Sequence record: PV357171.2 | Source of the DNA: a phage | Reading direction: 5' to 3' (one strand) | DNA length: 64,000 nucleotides | Shown: positions 13,315 to 37,603 of the stretch, piece after piece | Layout: the number at the start of each line of letters is the position of its first letter | Numbering within the stretch: the stretch's first letter is position 1 | Made by a program: the position numbers and the translations under genes | Notes under the pieces: generated by a model | Database searches by the model: none | Told to the model about the DNA's origin: nothing | What the model saw: only the letters and a program-made list of their open reading frames with translations

Positions 13315-13800
13315 ATGGATCATAGAACAAGTATTGCACAAGCTCTGGTTGACCGTATATCTAAACAGTTGGACGGTTCTCAACCCGACGAATATTTTAA
13401 TAACCTATATGGAAACGTTTCTCGTCAAACTTATAAATTTGAGGAAATACGAGAGTTTCCTTATGTGGCAGTTCATATCGGAACTGAAACTGGGCAGTAT
13501 CTTCCTTCGGGCCAACAGTGGATGTTTTTAGAACTTCCAATCCTGGTGTACGATAAAGAGAAAACAGACATTCAAGAGCAACTTGAAAAACTCGTAGCGG
13601 ATATAAAAACCGTTATTGACACAGGTGGAAATTTAGAATATACTGTTAGTAAACCTAATGGATCGACCTTCCCATGTGAGGCAACTGATATGATCATTAC
13701 ATCAGTTAGTACAGATGAGGGTCTACTGGCCCCATATGGTTTAGCAGAAATAAATGTAACAGTGAGGTATCAGCCTCCACGTAGGTCACTTCGCAGATAA
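13315..13800 (+). CDS. tail terminator protein (p142-like)
   Basis: 161 aa; immediately upstream of tail tube gene. Confidence 0.45.
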   Translation: MDHRTSIAQALVDRISKQLDGSQPDEYFNNLYGNVSRQTYKFEEIREFPYVAVHIGTETGQYLPSGQQWMFLELPILVYDKEKTDIQEQLEKLVADIKTVIDTGGNLEYTVSKPNGSTFPCEATDMIITSVSTDEGLLAPYGLAEINVTVRYQPPRRSLRR

Positions 13801-16529: not shown

Positions 16530-16959
16530 AGAATTACTAGATGCTGTTGCTGACTTTGCTGATAAATGTATTAAAAGCTCAGCATCTAAAATGACTAAAC
16601 AACAATATTTAATACTTTGTGAATCAATGGGTATAGAACCTGATCCTAAGGCTATGCCTGTTGAACTTGAAGACTTTCCACCTATTGTAGCTATTAGTAT
16701 GAATATTTATAATAGTCTAGTTGACTGTTTCATACCTGGCGACTTTCCTATATTTATAGGTAAAGACAAGGCTGCTTTAGGTGTTTTATTCGATATTTAT
16801 GGGATTACTGATCCCATAGAAAAAGAATTTGTTCTACACATTATCAATATATTTGATTCTAAAGCTGTAGACGCTGCACGTAAACGTGCTGAGAAGCATA
16901 AGCCGCAAAACGGTAGAATACCTAACGTTAAGCCACATGCTAAATCTCGAGCACGGTAA
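16504..16959 (+). CDS. putative tail assembly chaperone extension (T-like), +1 frame; track ORF 16591..16959
   Basis: Frame open from 16504, overlaps end of upstream ORF by ~25 nt; no SD before ATG 16591. Confidence 0.35.
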   Translation, partial: TLFVAQKRKELLDAVADFADKCIKSSASKMTKQQYLILCESMGIEPDPKAMPVELEDFPPIVAISMNIYNSLVDCFIPGDFPIFIGKDKAALGVLFDIYGITDPIEKEFVLHIINIFDSKAVDAARKRAEKHKPQNGRIPNVKPHAKSRAR

Positions 16960-16994
16960 AAGTTTCCTCCAATGGGCGTTCCACGATGAGGCTT

Positions 16995-17027
16995 GGCTCT
17001 GGGTGATTTGCCCAGAGCCTTTTTTAT
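16995..17027 (+). terminator. stem-loop plus T-tract before tape measure gene
   Basis: GGCTCTGGG...CCCAGAGCC then TTTTTTATTGGGAAAAATAAA. Confidence 0.7.
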
Positions 17028-17042
17028 TGGGAAAAATAAAAT

Positions 17043-20000
17043 ATGACTGATAAGCTAATACGAGAATTACTAATAGACGTTAAACAGAAGGGGGCAACCC
17101 GTACTGCAAAGTCTATTGAAAACGTATCTGATGCATTAGAGAACGCTGCTGCTGCTTCTGAACTAACAAATGAACAGTTAGGTAAAATGCCCAAAACTCT
17201 ATACTCCATTGAGAGGGCAGCAGATAGAGCAGCGAAAAGTCTTACTAAAATGCAAGCTAGCAGAGGTATGCTTAGTATTACTAAATCTATTAATGATATA
17301 GGAGCTAAGTTAGATGATCTCGCTATTACAATGATTGAAGTAGCAGATAAATTAGAAATCGGATTTGATGGAGTTTCTAGATCTGTTAAAACAATGGGCA
17401 ATGATGTTGCAGCTGCAACAGAGAAAGTTCAAGATAGGCTGTATGATACTAATAGAGCCTTAGGTGGTACAGCTAGAGGTTTTAATGATACTACTGGTGC
17501 CGCTGGTAGAGCTTCTAGAGCTATCGGTAATACCTCTGGCTCAGCACGCGGTGCAACTCGTGATTTCGCGGCAATGGCTAAGATAGGGGGTGGTTTACCT
17601 ATCCTGTATGCTGCAATTGCATCTAATATATTTGTTCTTCAGTCCGCTTTTGAGGGCCTAAAAGTAGGTGATCAATTAAACAGACTGGAACATTTTGGCA
17701 CTATCGTTGGGACTATAACGGGTACACCAGTACAGACGTTAGCTCTGGCACTACAAAACGCTACTAACGGTGCTGTATCCTTTGAAGAAGCTATGAGACA
17801 AGCGTCTTCTGCTTCAGCTTATGGATTTGATAGTAAACAATTAGAACAGTTCGGACTAGTAGCCCGTCGTGCTGCTGCTGTTCTTGGTGTTGACATGACC
17901 GACGCACTTAACCGTGTAATTAAAGGCGTATCTAAGCAAGAAATAGAACTTCTAGACGAACTTGGTGTTACTATTCGCCTTAACGATGCGTATGCAAATT
18001 ATGTTAAACAGCTAAATGCTACCAGTACAGGCATTAAATATACTGTAGATAGCCTGACTACCTACCAGAGACAACAAGCATATGCAAATGAAGTTATAGC
18101 AGAATCTACTAGACGTTTCGGATACCTAGATGATGCTCTTAAGTCAACTTCTTGGGAGCTATTTGCTGCTAATGCTAACTCTGCCCTAAGAAGCCTACAA
18201 CAAAGCGCAGCAACATACTTAACCCCTGTTGTAGACACCATCAATGCTTTCTTATATCAAACTAAATCTTCTCAGATGAGGATTTCCGCAATGGCACGCA
18301 GTGCCTCTGCTAAAACCACTCCTACTGAAAATGTTACGGCTCTCATAGAAAACGCTGTAGGTGCACAAGAAGATCTAGATACTTACCTTAAAGAAAGTGA
18401 TGCTCGTGTTAAGAAAGCTCAAGAGATTAAACAGCAGTTAGATGATCTCAAGGCAAAACAAGCTGTTACTGCTCCAGTAGCTAACGCACTTACTGCTGTG
18501 GGCATTGGAGGCGATGAAAGTAATAAATTAGTAGTACAACTTACTAATGAACTGGCTCGTCAAAACCAAGAAATAGCAGAACGCGCTAAAACCGAAAAAG
18601 TTCTCAAACAAGCAGTGGAAGATACTGGGCAAGCCTTACTGCGTAATAGTAATCTAGCTAAGCAATTAGGAGCCAATATGCAGTATGCTGCCACTGCTAT
18701 TCCTGGAGAGACCGGGGTATTTAAGATTGATCCTAATAATCTTAAAGCGGCTGCAGAGGTACAGAAGAACTATGACCAGCTAAAGAAAAGCTCTAGTGAT
18801 ACTGCAAATAATATAAAAATGGCAGCTACTAACATTACCACTGCCAAAAAAGCATCAGGTGACTTAGTTAGCATTATAAAAGCAGTAGGAGATACTGCTA
18901 AGGTAACAGGGCAAAATACAGATACTCTAGTTAAAAATCTGAATCTAGGCTTTGAAAATCTAGATCAAATGAAGGCTGCGCAGAAAGGTCTATCAGAATA
19001 TGTAACTGCTATGGATAAGAATGAGCAGAATGCACTGGAAGTAGCTAAACGTAAAGACGAGGTTTATAACCAGACTAAAGACAAAGCTAAAGCGGAGGCA
19101 GCAGCTAGAGAGGTGCTACTACGTCAGCAACAGGAACAGCTCACAGCAGCAAAAGCACTACTGGCTGTTAATCCAAACGATCCAGAGGCTCTAAAGCAGG
19201 TAGCTAAGATAGAAACAGAGATTCTTAATACTAAAGCTCAGGGATTTGAGAACGCTAAGAAAACTAAAGATCTGACAGATAAAATTCTTGGTGTAGATCG
19301 TGAGATAGCTCTCCTGAATGACCGCACTATGACGAGTACTCAGTATCGTCTAGCACAATTAAGGCTAGAGCTACAATTAGAGCAGGAAAAAACGGAATTA
19401 TATTCTAAACAAGCGGATGGCCAAGCTAAAGCAGAACAGTCTAGACGTGCCCAAGCACAAATAAGTAGAGAACTGTGGGAAGCAGAGAAACAAGCTACTG
19501 CCTCGCATGTGTCAGCTCTCATGGATGCCTTAGAAGTTAACCAAACTCAGAGAAATGTCACTGGTCAATCCCAGATTCTTACTGAAAGGTTATCCATTCT
19601 GCAACAACAGCTGGAGTTGTCTAAAGGTAATACTGAAGAAGAAATTAAATATCGTAATGAGATTTATAAAACTTCAGCAGCCTTAGAACAGCTTAAAAAG
19701 CAAAGAGAGAGTCAGATGCAGCAACAGGTAGGATCTTCATTAGGTGCTGTGTACACTCCTACAACTGGTCTATCTGGGGCAGATAAAGATTTTGCTGATA
19801 TGCAGAATAAGATGGCTTCTTATGACCAGGCTATTTCTAAGCTGTCTGAGTTAAATTCCGAAGCAACAGCTGTAGGTCAAAGCCTTGGTAATTTAACTAA
19901 TGCTATGATTCATTTCTCACGGGGATCTCTAGATACTACGTCTATGATTGCGGCAGGTATGCAAGCTGTATCTTCCGTAATTCAGTATAGTACTAGCCAG

Positions 20001-20702
20001 CAGGTAAGTGCTATTGATGCAGCTATTGCAGCAGAGCAAAAACGTGATGGTAAATCCGAGGAGTCTAAAGCTAAACTCAAGAAACTGGAAGCGGAAAAGG
20101 TTAAGATCCAGCAGGATGCAGCTAAGAAGCAAATCATTATTCAGACGGCAGTAGCAGTAATGCAAGCGGCAACAGCTGTACCATACCCGTTCTCTATTCC
20201 TTTGATGGTGGCGGCAGGTTTGGCAGGTGCGTTGTCTCTTGCTCAAGCATCTTCTGCATCGAGTATGTCAAGTATTGCTGATTCTGGAGCGGATACAACA
20301 AGTTATTTAACCTTAGGAGAGCGTCAAAAGAATATAGATGTGTCCATGTCTGCTAATGCAGGTGAACTATCTTATATCCGAGGCGATAAAGGAATAGGCG
20401 GTGCTAACTCTTTCGTTCCTCGTGCTGAGGGTGGTAATATGTACCCAGGGGTTAGTTACCAAATGGGTGAACATGGTACAGAAGTAGTTACCCCTATGGT
20501 TCCTATGAAAGCTACACCTAATGATGAGCTAAAAACCTCATCTAACTCAACTTCAGGAAGACCTATCATCTTGAATATTAGTGCTATGGATGCTGCAAGT
20601 TTCAGAGAGTTTGCTTCTAGTAATAGTAGTGCTCTAAGAGACGCAGTAGAATTAGCTCTGAATGAGAACGGTGCTAGTCTGAAAACATTAGGAAATTCTT
20701 AA
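17043..20702 (+). CDS. tail tape measure protein (pb2-like)
   Basis: 1219 aa, long coiled-coil/Ala-rich, C-terminal hydrophobic segment and peptidase-like end. Confidence 0.85.
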   Translation: MTDKLIRELLIDVKQKGATRTAKSIENVSDALENAAAASELTNEQLGKMPKTLYSIERAADRAAKSLTKMQASRGMLSITKSINDIGAKLDDLAITMIEVADKLEIGFDGVSRSVKTMGNDVAAATEKVQDRLYDTNRALGGTARGFNDTTGAAGRASRAIGNTSGSARGATRDFAAMAKIGGGLPILYAAIASNIFVLQSAFEGLKVGDQLNRLEHFGTIVGTITGTPVQTLALALQNATNGAVSFEEAMRQASSASAYGFDSKQLEQFGLVARRAAAVLGVDMTDALNRVIKGVSKQEIELLDELGVTIRLNDAYANYVKQLNATSTGIKYTVDSLTTYQRQQAYANEVIAESTRRFGYLDDALKSTSWELFAANANSALRSLQQSAATYLTPVVDTINAFLYQTKSSQMRISAMARSASAKTTPTENVTALIENAVGAQEDLDTYLKESDARVKKAQEIKQQLDDLKAKQAVTAPVANALTAVGIGGDESNKLVVQLTNELARQNQEIAERAKTEKVLKQAVEDTGQALLRNSNLAKQLGANMQYAATAIPGETGVFKIDPNNLKAAAEVQKNYDQLKKSSSDTANNIKMAATNITTAKKASGDLVSIIKAVGDTAKVTGQNTDTLVKNLNLGFENLDQMKAAQKGLSEYVTAMDKNEQNALEVAKRKDEVYNQTKDKAKAEAAAREVLLRQQQEQLTAAKALLAVNPNDPEALKQVAKIETEILNTKAQGFENAKKTKDLTDKILGVDREIALLNDRTMTSTQYRLAQLRLELQLEQEKTELYSKQADGQAKAEQSRRAQAQISRELWEAEKQATASHVSALMDALEVNQTQRNVTGQSQILTERLSILQQQLELSKGNTEEEIKYRNEIYKTSAALEQLKKQRESQMQQQVGSSLGAVYTPTTGLSGADKDFADMQNKMASYDQAISKLSELNSEATAVGQSLGNLTNAMIHFSRGSLDTTSMIAAGMQAVSSVIQYSTSQQVSAIDAAIAAEQKRDGKSEESKAKLKKLEAEKVKIQQDAAKKQIIIQTAVAVMQAATAVPYPFSIPLMVAAGLAGALSLAQASSASSMSSIADSGADTTSYLTLGERQKNIDVSMSANAGELSYIRGDKGIGGANSFVPRAEGGNMYPGVSYQMGEHGTEVVTPMVPMKATPNDELKTSSNSTSGRPIILNISAMDAASFREFASSNSSALRDAVELALNENGASLKTLGNS

Positions 20703-20709
20703 AACTGGA

Positions 20710-20737
20710 GGAGGACTTTGAGTCCTCCTTTTCTTTA
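20710..20737 (+). terminator. rho-independent terminator after tape measure gene
   Basis: GGAGGACT-TTG-AGTCCTCC then T-tract. Confidence 0.75.
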
Positions 20738-20755
20738 TGGAAAAATAAAAATTTC

Positions 20756-20784
20756 TTGATAAAATTTTCTAATACTATTATAAT
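20756..20784 (+). promoter_or_regulatory. sigma70 consensus-like promoter (TTGATA-17-TATAAT) upstream of distal tail protein gene
   Basis: Hexamers and spacing read from sequence; followed by strong RBS AAAGAGGAGAAA. Confidence 0.55.
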
Positions 20785-20811
20785 ATTGTTATTAAAGAGG
20801 AGAAATTAACT

Positions 20812-21426
20812 ATGAGATTACCAGACCCATACACGAATCCAGAACTTTCAGGCTTAGGATTCGAAAGTGTTAACCTGATTGATAATGACCCAGTAATTCG
20901 TGATGAGTTACCAAATGGTAAAGTTAACGAAGTTAAGGTATCTGCTCAATACTGGGGTATAAATATTTCTTATCCAGAATTATTTCCAGATGAATATAGT
21001 GTTCTAGATGCTTTTATTCTAGAATACAAAAGGACTGGTGGTTATATAGATGTTATATTACCCCAATACGAAGCTTTTAGAGTTAGAGGTAATACTAGTC
21101 TAGTAAATATACCTGCTGGACAGAAGGGTTCTAATATAACTATGGATACAAAAGGGCTTCTTACAGGTACTCCAAAACCGGGGGATCTATTTAAGCTGTC
21201 TAGCCACCCAAAAGTATATAAAATAACATCATTTAACAAATCAGGTAATACATGGTCTATAAACTTATACCCTGATTTATTTATAACTACTACTGGAGCG
21301 GAGAAGCCAGTATTCAATGGAATACTATTTAGAACAAAACTCATGAATGGTGATGCTTTTGGATCTACACTAAATAATAACGGAACATACTCCAACATCT
21401 CATTAAATTTACGGGAAAGTCTATGA
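20812..21426 (+). CDS. distal tail protein (pb9-like)
   Basis: 204 aa between tape measure and baseplate hub. Confidence 0.6.
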   Translation: MRLPDPYTNPELSGLGFESVNLIDNDPVIRDELPNGKVNEVKVSAQYWGINISYPELFPDEYSVLDAFILEYKRTGGYIDVILPQYEAFRVRGNTSLVNIPAGQKGSNITMDTKGLLTGTPKPGDLFKLSSHPKVYKITSFNKSGNTWSINLYPDLFITTTGAEKPVFNGILFRTKLMNGDAFGSTLNNNGTYSNISLNLRESL

Positions 21427-24272
21427 AAAAAATATTAGATAGTGCTAGAAACTACTTAAAAAATAATAGCAGAATAAAAACTGCTAGTCTAATTTCTCTA
21501 GAATTACCCGGCTCTACTGGTACTAGTACTGCTTTTATTTACTTAACTGACTATTTTAGAGATGTACTATATAATGGTATTTTGTACCAGGCCGGTAAAG
21601 TTAAGTCTATTAGCACACATAAACAAAATAGAGATTTATCTATTGGCAGCCTATCTTTTACTATTACAGGTACAGCGCAGGATGAAGTACTGAAATTAGT
21701 GCAGAATGGTGTGTCTTTTTTAGATAGATTAGTATCAATTCACCAAGCAATTATTACAGAAGATGGTTCTATTTTACCTGTAGACCCAGACACAAATGGG
21801 CCTTTATTATACTTTAGAGGTAGAATTACTGGTGGAGGTATTAAGGATAATATTAGCACTTCGGGAGTTGGAACCTCCACAATTACTTGGAATTGTTCTA
21901 ACCAATTCTATGATTTTGATAGGGTTAATGGTAGATTTACTGATGATGCTTCTCATAGAGGGCTTGAAGTTGTAGCAGGGCAATTAGTTCCATCTAACGG
22001 GGCTAAAAGACTTGAGTATCAAGAAGATTATGGGTTCTTTCATGCCAATAAAAGTATCTCTATTCTAGCAAAATATCAGGTACAGGAAGAAAGATACAAG
22101 CTAAAGTCTAAGAAAAAGCTATTTGGCCTATCTAGAAGTTATAGTCTTAAAAAGTATTATGAGACTGTTACTAAAGAAGTAGATATAGATTTTAACCTTG
22201 CTGCTAAGTATCTACCAGTAGTTTATGGTGTACAGAAAATACCGGGAATACCTATTTTTGCGGATACGGAATTACACAATCCTAATATAGTTTACGTAGT
22301 ATATGCTTTTGCTGAAGGAGAGATAGACGGTTTTCTTGACTTTTCCTTTGGGGATAACCCTATGATTTGTATGGACTCTAATGATAGCTCTGCTAGAACC
22401 TGTTTCGGTGTTAAAAAAGTAGCCGGAGACACCATGCAAAGAATAGCATCAGGAACACCTTCTAGTAGTCCTTCCGTGCATGGGCAGGAGTATAAGTATA
22501 ATGATGGGAATGGTGACATAAGAATTTGGACGTATCATGGAAAACCTGACCAAACGGCTTCTGAAGTACTAGTAGATATAGCTAAAGAACGTGGGTTCTA
22601 CCTTCAGAATATGAATGGCAATGGACCGGAGTACTGGGATGCTAGGTATAAACTACTAGATACTGCATACGCAGTGGTGCGCTTCACTATTAATGAAAAT
22701 AGGACTGAGATTCCTGAAGTTAGTGCTGAAATTCAAGGTAAAAAAGTAAAAGTCTATCATTCTGATGGTAGAGTAACTGCTAATAGTACTAGTTTAAATG
22801 GTATTTGGCAAACACTTGATTACTTAACCTCTGATAGATATGGCGCTAATATTACCATTGATCAGTTCCCCCTTCAGCAATTAATACAGGAAGCAGATAT
22901 TTTAGATATTATAGATGAATCCTATCAGGTATCTTGGCAGCCATATTGGAGATACGTTGGGTGGACTGATCCACTAGCAGAAAATAGACAAATAGTACAA
23001 ATGAATACTATTCTGGATACATCTGAATCAGTATTTAAAAATGTGCAAGGTTTGTTAGAGTCCTATGGTGGGGCTATTAACAATTTATCTGGCCAGTATA
23101 GGGTTACTGTAGAAAAATACTCTAATACTCCATTAGAGATTAATTTTCTAGACACTTACGGTGATTTGGAGCTATCTGATACTACCGGTAGAAATAAATT
23201 CAACTCAGTTCAAGCATCTATTGTGGATCCCGCCCTTAGCTGGAAAACTAATTCCATTACCTTCTATAATTCCAAGTATAAGGAACAGGACAAAAACCTG
23301 GATAAAAAACTACAATTATCTTTTGCAAATATAACTAACTACTATACTGCTAGAAGTTTTGCAGACAGAGAACTTAAGAAATCTAGGTATTCTAGAACCC
23401 TCTCATTCTCTTTACCATATCAATTCATTGGTATTGAGCCTAACGATGCTATTGCATTTACATACGACCGTTACGGATGGGATAAGAAGTACTTTTTAGT
23501 AGATGAAGTAGAAAACTCTAGAGAAGGAAAGATAAATGTTACTCTACAGGAATATGGTGAAGATGTATTTATCAACTCTGATCAAGTAGATAATAGTGGT
23601 AATGATATACCAGATATTAGTAACAACGTTCTTCCTCCTAGGGATTTTAAATATACTCCTACACCCGGTGGTTTAGTTGGTTCTATAGGAAAAAATGGTG
23701 AGTTATCTTGGCTTCCAAGCTTAACTAATAACGTAGTTTATTATTCTATCGTACATTCCGGTCATGCTGAGCCTTATACTGTGCAGCAACTAGAAACAAA
23801 TCCCAATGAACGCATGATCCAAGAGATAATTGGAGAGCCTGCAGGCTTAGCGATATTTGAAATAAGAGCTGTGGATATAAACGGTAGAAGAAGTTCTCCA
23901 GTAACATTATCTATAGAACTTAACTCTGCTAAAAACCTAAGTGTAGTATCTAATTTTAGGGTAACTAATACGGCTTCCGGGGATGTAACTGAATTTGTAG
24001 GCCCAGATGTAAAACTAGCTTGGGATAGGATACCGGAAGAAGATATAATAGAAAGTATATTCTATACTCTGGAAATCTATGATTCCCAGAATAGAATGCT
24101 AAGAAGTGTACGTATTGAAAATCAGTATACTTATGACTATTTATTAATGTATAATAAGGCAGATTTTGCTCTTCATAACAGTGATGCTCTAGGAATCAAT
24201 AGAAAACTATATTTTCGTATTAGAGCAGAAGGAGATGATGGGGAACAGTCTGTGGAGTGGGCATCCATTTAA
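21423..24272 (+). CDS. baseplate hub protein (pb3-like)
   Basis: 949 aa; synteny. Confidence 0.7.
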   Translation: MKKILDSARNYLKNNSRIKTASLISLELPGSTGTSTAFIYLTDYFRDVLYNGILYQAGKVKSISTHKQNRDLSIGSLSFTITGTAQDEVLKLVQNGVSFLDRLVSIHQAIITEDGSILPVDPDTNGPLLYFRGRITGGGIKDNISTSGVGTSTITWNCSNQFYDFDRVNGRFTDDASHRGLEVVAGQLVPSNGAKRLEYQEDYGFFHANKSISILAKYQVQEERYKLKSKKKLFGLSRSYSLKKYYETVTKEVDIDFNLAAKYLPVVYGVQKIPGIPIFADTELHNPNIVYVVYAFAEGEIDGFLDFSFGDNPMICMDSNDSSARTCFGVKKVAGDTMQRIASGTPSSSPSVHGQEYKYNDGNGDIRIWTYHGKPDQTASEVLVDIAKERGFYLQNMNGNGPEYWDARYKLLDTAYAVVRFTINENRTEIPEVSAEIQGKKVKVYHSDGRVTANSTSLNGIWQTLDYLTSDRYGANITIDQFPLQQLIQEADILDIIDESYQVSWQPYWRYVGWTDPLAENRQIVQMNTILDTSESVFKNVQGLLESYGGAINNLSGQYRVTVEKYSNTPLEINFLDTYGDLELSDTTGRNKFNSVQASIVDPALSWKTNSITFYNSKYKEQDKNLDKKLQLSFANITNYYTARSFADRELKKSRYSRTLSFSLPYQFIGIEPNDAIAFTYDRYGWDKKYFLVDEVENSREGKINVTLQEYGEDVFINSDQVDNSGNDIPDISNNVLPPRDFKYTPTPGGLVGSIGKNGELSWLPSLTNNVVYYSIVHSGHAEPYTVQQLETNPNERMIQEIIGEPAGLAIFEIRAVDINGRRSSPVTLSIELNSAKNLSVVSNFRVTNTASGDVTEFVGPDVKLAWDRIPEEDIIESIFYTLEIYDSQNRMLRSVRIENQYTYDYLLMYNKADFALHNSDALGINRKLYFRIRAEGDDGEQSVEWASI

Positions 24273-26329
24273 TGATTTCGAATAATGCACCAGCCAAAAT
24301 GGTCTTAAATAGTATAATGACTGGATATACAATGGCATATGTCCAGCACTCTATATATACTGACTATGACGTTATTGGTAGATCTTTTTGGTTAAAAACA
24401 GGGGAAAGTATAGATAGACGTGATTATACTGGTATAGATACTTTCTTCGTAATGATTAATAACCTGACCCCTTCAACCTCTTACGAGATTCAAGGGGCTT
24501 TTTATGATTCTATTATAGACTCTGAGCTATTAGAGGCTAAGATCGGTATAAATTTATCTAATAAAACTACCTTTAGTACTAAGAGAAAACCTACTATTAC
24601 TGCTGCTCGATCAGAAGCAGATCCAGTAGATGTGGGTGTTGGTGCTCCAATAGTAGTTATAGAAACTACGGGAGAAGCTAGTTATTGTACTATTGAGCTA
24701 AAGAGTACTCAACCTTCAAATAGCCCGTGGGTAAAGCATTATATAGGTCCACTATCCCCCACTATTAGATTTGGTGGTGTTCCTGTTGGGGATTACAAAG
24801 TACGCATATCAGGGCAAGTTACTATGCCTGATGGTGTAACGGTAGACTCCTCTGGGTACTTTGAATTTTCCAAAGTTCTTACTGTAGAATATAACTTTGT
24901 ACCTCCTACTGCTCCTAATAACATTACCTTCAAAGCTGCAAGAATAGCGGATGGTAAAGAGAGATATGACCTTCGTGTACAGTGGGAGTGGAATAGGGGA
25001 TCTGGAGCCAATGTTCGAGAATTTGTCGTTTCTTATATAGATTCCACAGAATTTGCAAGAACTGGATGGACTAAAGCTCAAAAAATTAACGTAGGTGCTG
25101 CACAAGCGGCAACTATTATATCGTTCCCGTGGAAAATTGAGCATAAATTTAAAGTCTCCTCTATAGCGTGGGGGCCAGATGCTCAAGATGTAACAGATTC
25201 TGTAGTACAGACTTTTATACTAAATGAGGATACCCCTCTTGATAATAGTTTTGTTAATGAAACTGGTATAGAAGTAAACTATGCGTATATTAAAGGTAAG
25301 ATTAAAGATGGCTCCACGTGGAAGCAAACATTTTTAATCGATGCTACTACTGGTGCTATTAATATAGGTCTTCTAGATGCTGAAGGAAAAGCACCAATAT
25401 CTTTTGATCCGATTAAAAAGATAGTTAACGTTGATGGTAGTGTTATAACTAAAACTATCAATGCTGCTAACTTTGTAATGACCAATCTAACTGGCCAAGA
25501 TAACCCTGCAATCTATACTCAAGGTAAAACTTGGGGGGATACAAAATCTGGTATCTGGATGGGAATGGATAACACTTCTGCTAAGCCAAAGCTAGATATA
25601 GGTAATGCTACTCAGTGGATACGCTATGATGGCGATGTGCTACGTATTTCTAGTGGAGTTGTTATTGGAACTCCTAATGGTGATGTAGATATTGGTACTG
25701 GGATGCAGGGTAAGCAAACAGTATTTGTTTATAAGTTAGCAACATCTCTACCCGCTAAACCACTAGAACAAGATTATCCGCCTCCTGGTTGGTCAAAAAC
25801 TCCACCTAATCGTACAGATATGACACAAAATATCTATGCGACTACTGGTACACTTGATCCAGTTACTAACAAACTTCTTGAAGGTACTAGCTGGTCTGAT
25901 GTAGTTCAATGGAGCGGTACTGAAGGTACTATTGGTGCAGATGGTCAAAGGGGTCCTGGCATGTATTCCTTAGGTATTCCAGGTCTTGGTGGTTGGGATG
26001 ATGGGCAAGCTAATACCTTCTTCCAGAATAACTTTGGTAGTCCACCCGTTAGATATGATGTATTGACTGAGTTTAATAGTAATGCTCCGCAATCTGCATT
26101 TACTCGTCAATGGAATGGTTCCGGTTGGGTTAATCCAGCAATGGTACTGCATGGCGATATGATAGTTAACGGTACGGTAACCGCCAGTAAGATTGTAGCA
26201 AATAATGCCTTCTTATCTCAGATCGGTGTTAACGTTATTTATGATAGAAACGCTGCATTATCTGATAATCCGGAAGCCTATTACAGAATGAAGATAGACC
26301 TGCAAAACGGGTACATCCATATAAGGTAA
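24257..26329 (+). CDS. central straight fibre / tail tip protein (pb4-like)
   Basis: 690 aa; synteny. Confidence 0.6.
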   Translation: MGIHLMISNNAPAKMVLNSIMTGYTMAYVQHSIYTDYDVIGRSFWLKTGESIDRRDYTGIDTFFVMINNLTPSTSYEIQGAFYDSIIDSELLEAKIGINLSNKTTFSTKRKPTITAARSEADPVDVGVGAPIVVIETTGEASYCTIELKSTQPSNSPWVKHYIGPLSPTIRFGGVPVGDYKVRISGQVTMPDGVTVDSSGYFEFSKVLTVEYNFVPPTAPNNITFKAARIADGKERYDLRVQWEWNRGSGANVREFVVSYIDSTEFARTGWTKAQKINVGAAQAATIISFPWKIEHKFKVSSIAWGPDAQDVTDSVVQTFILNEDTPLDNSFVNETGIEVNYAYIKGKIKDGSTWKQTFLIDATTGAINIGLLDAEGKAPISFDPIKKIVNVDGSVITKTINAANFVMTNLTGQDNPAIYTQGKTWGDTKSGIWMGMDNTSAKPKLDIGNATQWIRYDGDVLRISSGVVIGTPNGDVDIGTGMQGKQTVFVYKLATSLPAKPLEQDYPPPGWSKTPPNRTDMTQNIYATTGTLDPVTNKLLEGTSWSDVVQWSGTEGTIGADGQRGPGMYSLGIPGLGGWDDGQANTFFQNNFGSPPVRYDVLTEFNSNAPQSAFTRQWNGSGWVNPAMVLHGDMIVNGTVTASKIVANNAFLSQIGVNVIYDRNAALSDNPEAYYRMKIDLQNGYIHIR

Positions 26330-37574: not shown

Positions 37575-37603
37575 ATTATACATCATTTATGAGCTGTTGC
37601 CAA
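37575..37603 (-). promoter_or_regulatory. second T5-type early promoter copy overlapping 3' end of helicase gene
   Basis: Near-duplicate of the downstream copy; followed by stem-loop at ~37517..37545. Confidence 0.4.

Follow-up and report, generated by a model that had tools for sequence, protein, structure and literature searches.

We analyzed a stretch of 64,000 nucleotides from a phage genome (PV357171.2; hereafter the window), which has a GC content of 39%, around the gene of its distal tail protein (dit). The window comes from a T5-like phage (Tequintavirus). About 445 phage records matched 1.2 kb around the site, the best with 98.5% identity, and among the matches listed all were T5-like phages of Escherichia, Salmonella or Shigella. 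The tape-measure protein gene, which is the last gene of the upstream late unit and has the same length and position as T5.140 in the T5 reference (NC_005859), is separated from dit by an intergenic gap of 109 nt. The product of dit matches the PHROG distal tail protein family (E = 3e-66), and dit is followed by overlapping genes in the same order as in T5, the first of which encodes a 949-aa protein matching the PHROG family of central tail fiber J (pb3-like). The 109-nt gap contains a terminator-like hairpin, a promoter and a Shine-Dalgarno (SD) sequence (Table 1). The ORF list holds no minus-strand reading frame of at least 40 aa in this gap. An Rfam scan returned chance matches below threshold only, and we therefore rejected the reading of the gap as a structured RNA.

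Table 1. Features at and around the dit locus, in window coordinates
Feature	Position	Strand	Basis
Second late promoter TTGACA-17-TATACT, orthologue of T5 P-J5	13616..13644	+	Promoter scan; T5 alignment
Tape-measure protein gene (pb2 orthologue, 1219 aa), last of the upstream late unit	17043..20702	+	ORF; PHROG tail length tape measure protein, E = 0
Intrinsic-terminator-like hairpin GGAGGAGGAC-loop-GTCCTCCTTT with T-run	20707..20737	+	Terminator scan, fold, T5 annotation
A/T-rich block GAAAAATAAAAATTTC, likely UP element	20740..20755	+	Adjoins the -35 hexamer; sequence reading, invariant in 28 loci
-35 hexamer TTGATA, PG25 orthologue	20756..20761	+	Invariant in 28/28 Tequintavirus/Epseptimavirus loci
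-10 hexamer TATAAT	20779..20784	+	Invariant in all 28 loci
Predicted 21-nt leader with SD GAGGAG (20797-20802)	20791..20811	+	Identity with the pQE30 RBS element from the first base
Distal tail protein gene dit (pb9 orthologue, 204 aa), first of the PG25 unit	20812..21426	+	ORF; PHROG
Overlapping genes: pb3-like baseplate hub (949 aa) and pb4-like protein (690 aa)	21423..26329	+	Start/stop overlaps; same gene order in T5

The two hexamers TTGATA and TATAAT together match the sigma70 consensus at 11 of 12 positions in the promoter scan, and the 17 nt between them fall within the 16-18 nt spacing of sigma70 promoters. The promoter is oriented toward dit and lies about 25 nt 3' of the terminator hairpin. 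The A/T-rich block adjoining the -35 hexamer is likely to act as an UP element, as far as its composition and position can tell; Klimuk et al. (PMC7472727; legend to Fig. S5) mark an UP element in their alignments of T5 promoters. We predict A20791 as the transcription start (+1) because it is located 7 nt past the -10 hexamer and is the sole purine in 20789-20793. From this base, the sequence reads ATTAAAGAGGAGAAATTAACT-ATG-AGA through 20817, with the ATG AGA at 20812-20817 and the SD sequence GAGGAG 9 nt ahead of the dit start codon. The arrangement that an earlier note on this DNA had read here, a TTGATA-17-TATAAT promoter (20756-20784) followed by a strong ribosome-binding site (RBS) in the leader, is present as described. 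Upstream of the promoter, the GC-rich hairpin (20707-20731) has a stem of 11 pairs and is followed by the T-run TTTTCTTT, as in intrinsic terminators, and it folds with -16.7 kcal/mol (z = -3.15 against shuffles). It is predicted to end the tape-measure transcript.

We are highly confident that this element is orthologous to PG25, a late promoter of T5, and includes the leader and RBS of dit/pb9. In the T5 RefSeq entry (NC_005859), the features "promoter P-G 25" (92013..92087) and a putative rho-independent terminator (92087..92113) are both placed between the pb2 gene (T5.140) and the distal tail protein gene (T5.139). The window promoter lies likewise between the tape-measure (pb2) and pb9 genes and reads toward dit. 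In the pairwise alignment, only one base differs between the window and T5 over the region that extends from the T-run 3' of the hairpin up to the start codon of dit. This base, located in the spacer, is T in the window and C in T5, and it is also the sole difference within the 75-nt annotated PG25 feature. The annotation at the same place and the one-base difference identify the site as the PG25 orthologue. The position after the terminator, the -35 and -10 hexamers, the UP-like block, the leader, the SD sequence and the start codon are all shared, whereas the loop of the T5 terminator differs at two bases. The window phage is a different Tequintavirus, and its Dit has only 82% protein identity to T5 pb9. 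The homing-endonuclease-type gene T5.141 (annotated as "endonuclease"), which T5 carries upstream of its tape-measure gene, is absent from the window phage.

PG25 itself is already known: cloning and characterization date from the 1980s, it is annotated in the T5 reference, and it has served as a model late promoter in primer extension. According to PMC7472727, Gentz & Bujard (1985) first found PG25 and another T5 promoter, PJ5, by transcription in vitro, and activity with the unmodified host polymerase is credited there to the same 1985 work. Transcript 5' ends downstream of PG25 were mapped by primer extension in T5-infected cells (PMC7472727). The two tests suggested in the earlier note, mapping of 5' ends in infected cells and an assay of the promoter with the host polymerase alone, have thus been performed for T5. 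The earlier reading of a sigma70-type promoter driving the distal tail protein gene holds for T5, and near-identity allows this function to be transferred, by analogy, to the window phage.

The orthologue of PJ5 is the only other plus-strand site matching at least 11 of 12 positions in the whole window, and the P-J5 feature with its flanks is 100% identical between the window and T5 over all 107 compared bases. Like PG25, PJ5 is of the sigma70 type, belongs to this phage region and becomes active with late kinetics in T5. It has the hexamers TTGACA and TATACT, drives the major tail protein gene, and lies within the coding sequence of the preceding gene (here a 161-aa ORF at 13315..13800, upstream of the major tail protein gene), whereas PG25 occupies a gap after a terminator. 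The description of the dit promoter as lying "inside the late operon" needs to be revised, as the late region consists of several units, with terminators at 16995-17019 and 20707-20731 and restarts at PJ5 (13616) and PG25 (20756). The hairpin at 16995-17019 (-22.1 kcal/mol, z = -3.6; within the stretch 16959-17043) stands directly ahead of the tape-measure gene. As the genes behind dit are tightly packed, the pb3-like and pb4-like genes are presumably co-transcribed with it from PG25.

We compared 28 related loci of Tequintavirus and Epseptimavirus from IMG/VR, whose Dit proteins range from 100% down to 80% identity. The hairpin stem, the UP-like block and both hexamers are invariant in all 28 loci, and the SD sequence in 27, the exception being Salmonella phage SP3, which lacks the whole stretch. 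The only variable parts are the loop of the hairpin, the discriminator/leader start and two positions of the spacer. The T5 regulatory region is likewise almost identical to that of the window despite the 82% identity of Dit. At the discriminator/leader start (20785-20796), two alleles were observed in Tequintavirus, TATAAT-ATTGTTATTAAAG and TATAAT-AATTGTATCTAAG, in addition to a variant shorter by 1 nt; the alleles were compared with the relatives L008, L012, L015-L019 and L021 at locus positions of about 1474-1485.

The comparison was extended to six more distant genomes, with Dit identities from 85% down to 39%: Epseptimavirus S147, Sugarlandvirus KpGranit, Vipunavirus VPG01, Thalassavirus Chester, Pogseptimavirus vB_ValS_X1 and the unclassified Vibrio phage D138. 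All six have a gap of 108-165 nt between the tape-measure gene and dit, and each of these gaps contains a hairpin with a T-run, a promoter matching 10-11 of 12 positions that starts at most about 25 nt from the T-run, and an SD sequence. In the Klebsiella and Vibrio phages, the hairpin and promoter at the same place have different sequences. Conservation thus extends beyond the sequence to the architecture. That each of the six other Demerecviridae lineages sampled has retained the terminator-promoter-SD module may be a new observation. Such conservation favors the view that it is functionally necessary to terminate the tape-measure transcript and begin transcription anew for the tail-tip genes.

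The leader of dit is familiar from expression vectors. The 27-nt sequence ATTAAAGAGGAGAAATTAACTATGAGA (20791-20817) occurs once in the window, where shuffles predict no occurrence, and all 27 nucleotides are identical to pQE30, in which the element reads GAATTC-ATTAAAGAGGAGAAATTAACT-ATG with the N-terminal codons ATGAGAGGATCG. For this comparison we used the vector sequence CACAGAATTCATTAAAGAGGAGAAATTAACTATG as printed in a paper employing a pQE30 derivative. The earlier suggestion that the RBS is the one used in T5-promoter expression vectors was therefore correct. The BioBrick RBSs BBa_B0030 (ATTAAAGAGGAGAAA) and BBa_B0034 (AAAGAGGAGAAA) are also exact substrings, at 20791-20805 and 20794-20805, respectively, and the RBS-family sequence ATTAAAGAGGAGAAA(TTAACT)ATG matches exactly at 20791-20814. 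In the pDS/pQE vectors, an EcoRI site and a hybrid of a PN25-derived promoter and lac operator, not PG25, precede the element, and GGATCG-His6 codons come after it, whereas in the window phage it is the native leader of dit. A search of natural plasmids (PLSDB) with the promoter and RBS yielded only AT-rich chance matches and no vector records.

An identity over 27 nt makes an independent origin of the vector element implausible. Moreover, the identity starts at A20791, the predicted +1, which supports a derivation in which the vector element would comprise the native leader in full and the first two codons of dit. The vector RBSII was thus likely copied from this phage leader, corresponding to the predicted +1 to +27 of the phage transcript. 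Patent texts of Hoffmann-La Roche presumably describe RBSII as derived from the RBS under the control of T5 PG25; in the literature searched, we did not find a statement that RBSII derives from the T5 PG25 leader. RBSII has been cited to the T5 promoter-based system of the Bujard laboratory (PMC3333853).

The RBS had been rated as very strong, and this holds in part. The SD/anti-SD duplex of dit, with five Watson-Crick pairs and one G-U pair, has -9.1 kcal/mol and ranks second among 20 plus-strand genes of the late region, close to T7 g10 (-8.8 kcal/mol). With the first 39 coding nucleotides, the leader reaches a folding energy of only -1.3 kcal/mol, which 185 of 200 shuffles equal or surpass. 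The initiation region of dit is among the least structured of the 20 genes. The RBS is accordingly one of the best in the late region. Dit is needed in few copies per virion (about 6), so that a strong promoter and RBS are not obviously required by stoichiometry. "Very strong" overstates the case: the duplex is far from the -13.5 kcal/mol of a full consensus SD, and RBSII was not among the two strongest sites in a cell-free comparison of RBSs (PMC3333853).

Alternative readings of the promoter and of its leader have to be weighed against these observations. The hexamer match alone is unremarkable in an AT-rich window. Both strands hold six sites with at least 11 of 12 matches, compared with 3.17 +/- 1.86 in 100 dinucleotide-preserving shuffles, so that about three would be expected by chance, and promoter-like sites overall are not enriched in the 12-31 kb region (48 against 57.5 in shuffles). 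The case for the promoter therefore rests on context and comparison. If the match had arisen by chance and dit were translated from read-through of upstream late promoters, the site would not be expected to be orthologous to an annotated T5 promoter verified by primer extension, nor to lie just 3' of a terminator hairpin within one of the largest late intergenic gaps. Its hexamers are invariant in the 28 loci while the adjoining coding sequence diverges, and distant genera have a promoter of other sequence at the same position. We rejected a chance match on the strength of the T5 orthology, the hexamer invariance and the recurrence in distant genera, and regard it as very improbable. A perfect identity of 27 nt with a commercial vector could, on the other hand, be taken as vector contamination or a chimeric assembly. 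However, the identity ends at the EcoRI site of the vector upstream and at its RGS-His codons downstream, and no vector-specific sequence such as lac operators or a His tag stands beside the stretch in the window. The flanks are continuous phage sequence, kept in most of about 440 T5-like records, in 27 of the 28 aligned loci and in the T5 reference, and the stretch supplies the SD sequence and the start codon of an essential tail gene. Given the continuous conserved phage flanks and the lack of adjoining vector sequence, contamination was also rejected, and we consider it even less credible than a chance match.

As to the timing of the promoter, it had been argued that a host-type promoter in the late region could let dit be expressed independently of late transcription, for instance early or constitutively. 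The near-consensus sequence, the core of which demands no phage factor, the in vitro discovery with host polymerase as summarized in the literature (PMC7472727), and the fact that the mechanism of temporal switching in T5 is stated as unknown (PMC7472727) could be taken in favor of such expression. However, the host sigma70 RNA polymerase transcribes all three temporal gene classes of T5, and strong sigma70 promoters precede early as well as late genes (PMC7472727). The promoter type is thereby uninformative on timing; promoters of the host type are normal in the late region and do not indicate expression outside the programme. In a multiplex assay, primer-extension products of T5 PG25 appeared together with those of PJ5 from about 30 min post infection and then accumulated, past the peak of the early promoters at 20 min (PMC7472727). 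In the gpT5.026 mutant, transcripts from PG25 and PJ5, the two late promoters tested, were reduced about five-fold, as expected of the late class; the main difference between early and late T5 promoters is in the discriminator, the region on which gpT5.026 acts (PMC7472727). Our literature search retrieved no genome-wide map of transcription starts in T5. Since its transcripts in T5 do not appear until about 30 min post infection, PG25 belongs to the late promoters. These kinetics contradict the proposed independence from late transcription, and expression of dit outside the late programme appears improbable.

The leader is missing from two public genomes. Salmonella phage SP3 (MG387042/NC_048001, around position 89,360) lacks 24 nt and Escherichia phage BUCT632 (PQ488502, around position 2,520) lacks 25 nt, both at the place homologous to 20791-20815 of the window. 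Each gap opens precisely where the vector-identical stretch begins and takes away the SD sequence and the start codon of dit; the 25-nt gap of BUCT632 also shifts the frame. The distal tail protein is annotated as a 285-nt stub CDS in both records. A phage without the start of dit would presumably not be viable. The gaps probably represent genuine phage sequence, ATTAAAGAGGAGAAATTAACTATG, that was trimmed as supposed vector contamination, which is possibly a new observation. The identity with the vector thus appears to have a practical cost, as at least two public phage genomes are without these bases and have dit mis-annotated.

The sequence and the T5 data together suggest how the module might work. 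Late in infection, the host sigma70 RNA polymerase with T5-encoded accessory proteins would stop the tape-measure transcript at 20707-20737, where upstream late transcripts would largely end at the hairpin and T-run. Polymerase would then restart about 25 nt downstream at the UP-like A/T block, TTGATA, the 17-nt spacer and TATAAT. Initiation at about A20791 would produce an mRNA with the short, unstructured 21-nt leader AUUAAAGAGGAGAAAUUAACU and a good SD sequence 9 nt before the AUG, and the lack of structure in the leader would allow efficient initiation on dit. The PG25 mRNA would express dit and, most likely, the overlapping baseplate/tail-tip genes behind it, and the terminator-promoter pair would allow the tail-tip genes to be expressed independently of the tape-measure gene. 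The promoter would follow late kinetics in infection despite its recognition by the unmodified host polymerase.

The value of the locus as a discovery is small, as the PG25 promoter was already known to be real and functional. The widely used RBSs RBSII, B0030 and B0034 can be traced by sequence to the tail-gene leader of T5-like phages, and the conserved terminator-promoter-SD arrangement offers a comparative handle on how T5 times its sigma70 promoters. We could speculate, although we think it rather unlikely, that the cassette is ancient and conserved in position in all Demerecviridae and that its near-consensus sigma70 promoter is actively silenced until late in infection, perhaps via the discriminator or the initial transcribed region, in which the Tequintavirus alleles vary and on which gpT5.026 acts. 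If so, the site would be a compact natural model for the timing of sigma70 promoters in T5-like phages in the absence of a phage-encoded sigma factor.

The leaders of two Vibrio phages and the opposite strand of the window provided further observations. In VPG01 (locus positions 431-615) and Chester (435-615), the leader from the promoter to dit is about 85-100 nt long, compared with 21 nt in the window, and the two long leaders share short stretches such as ACGAGAT and ATGGCATTT-GGAGCA, suggestive of an additional regulatory leader in Vibrio Demerecviridae. On the minus strand of the window, sites matching 11 of 12 positions with 17-nt spacers were found at 37603, 46189, 54283 and 59997, and the second half of the window, which contains these four sites, probably includes the early region in opposite orientation.
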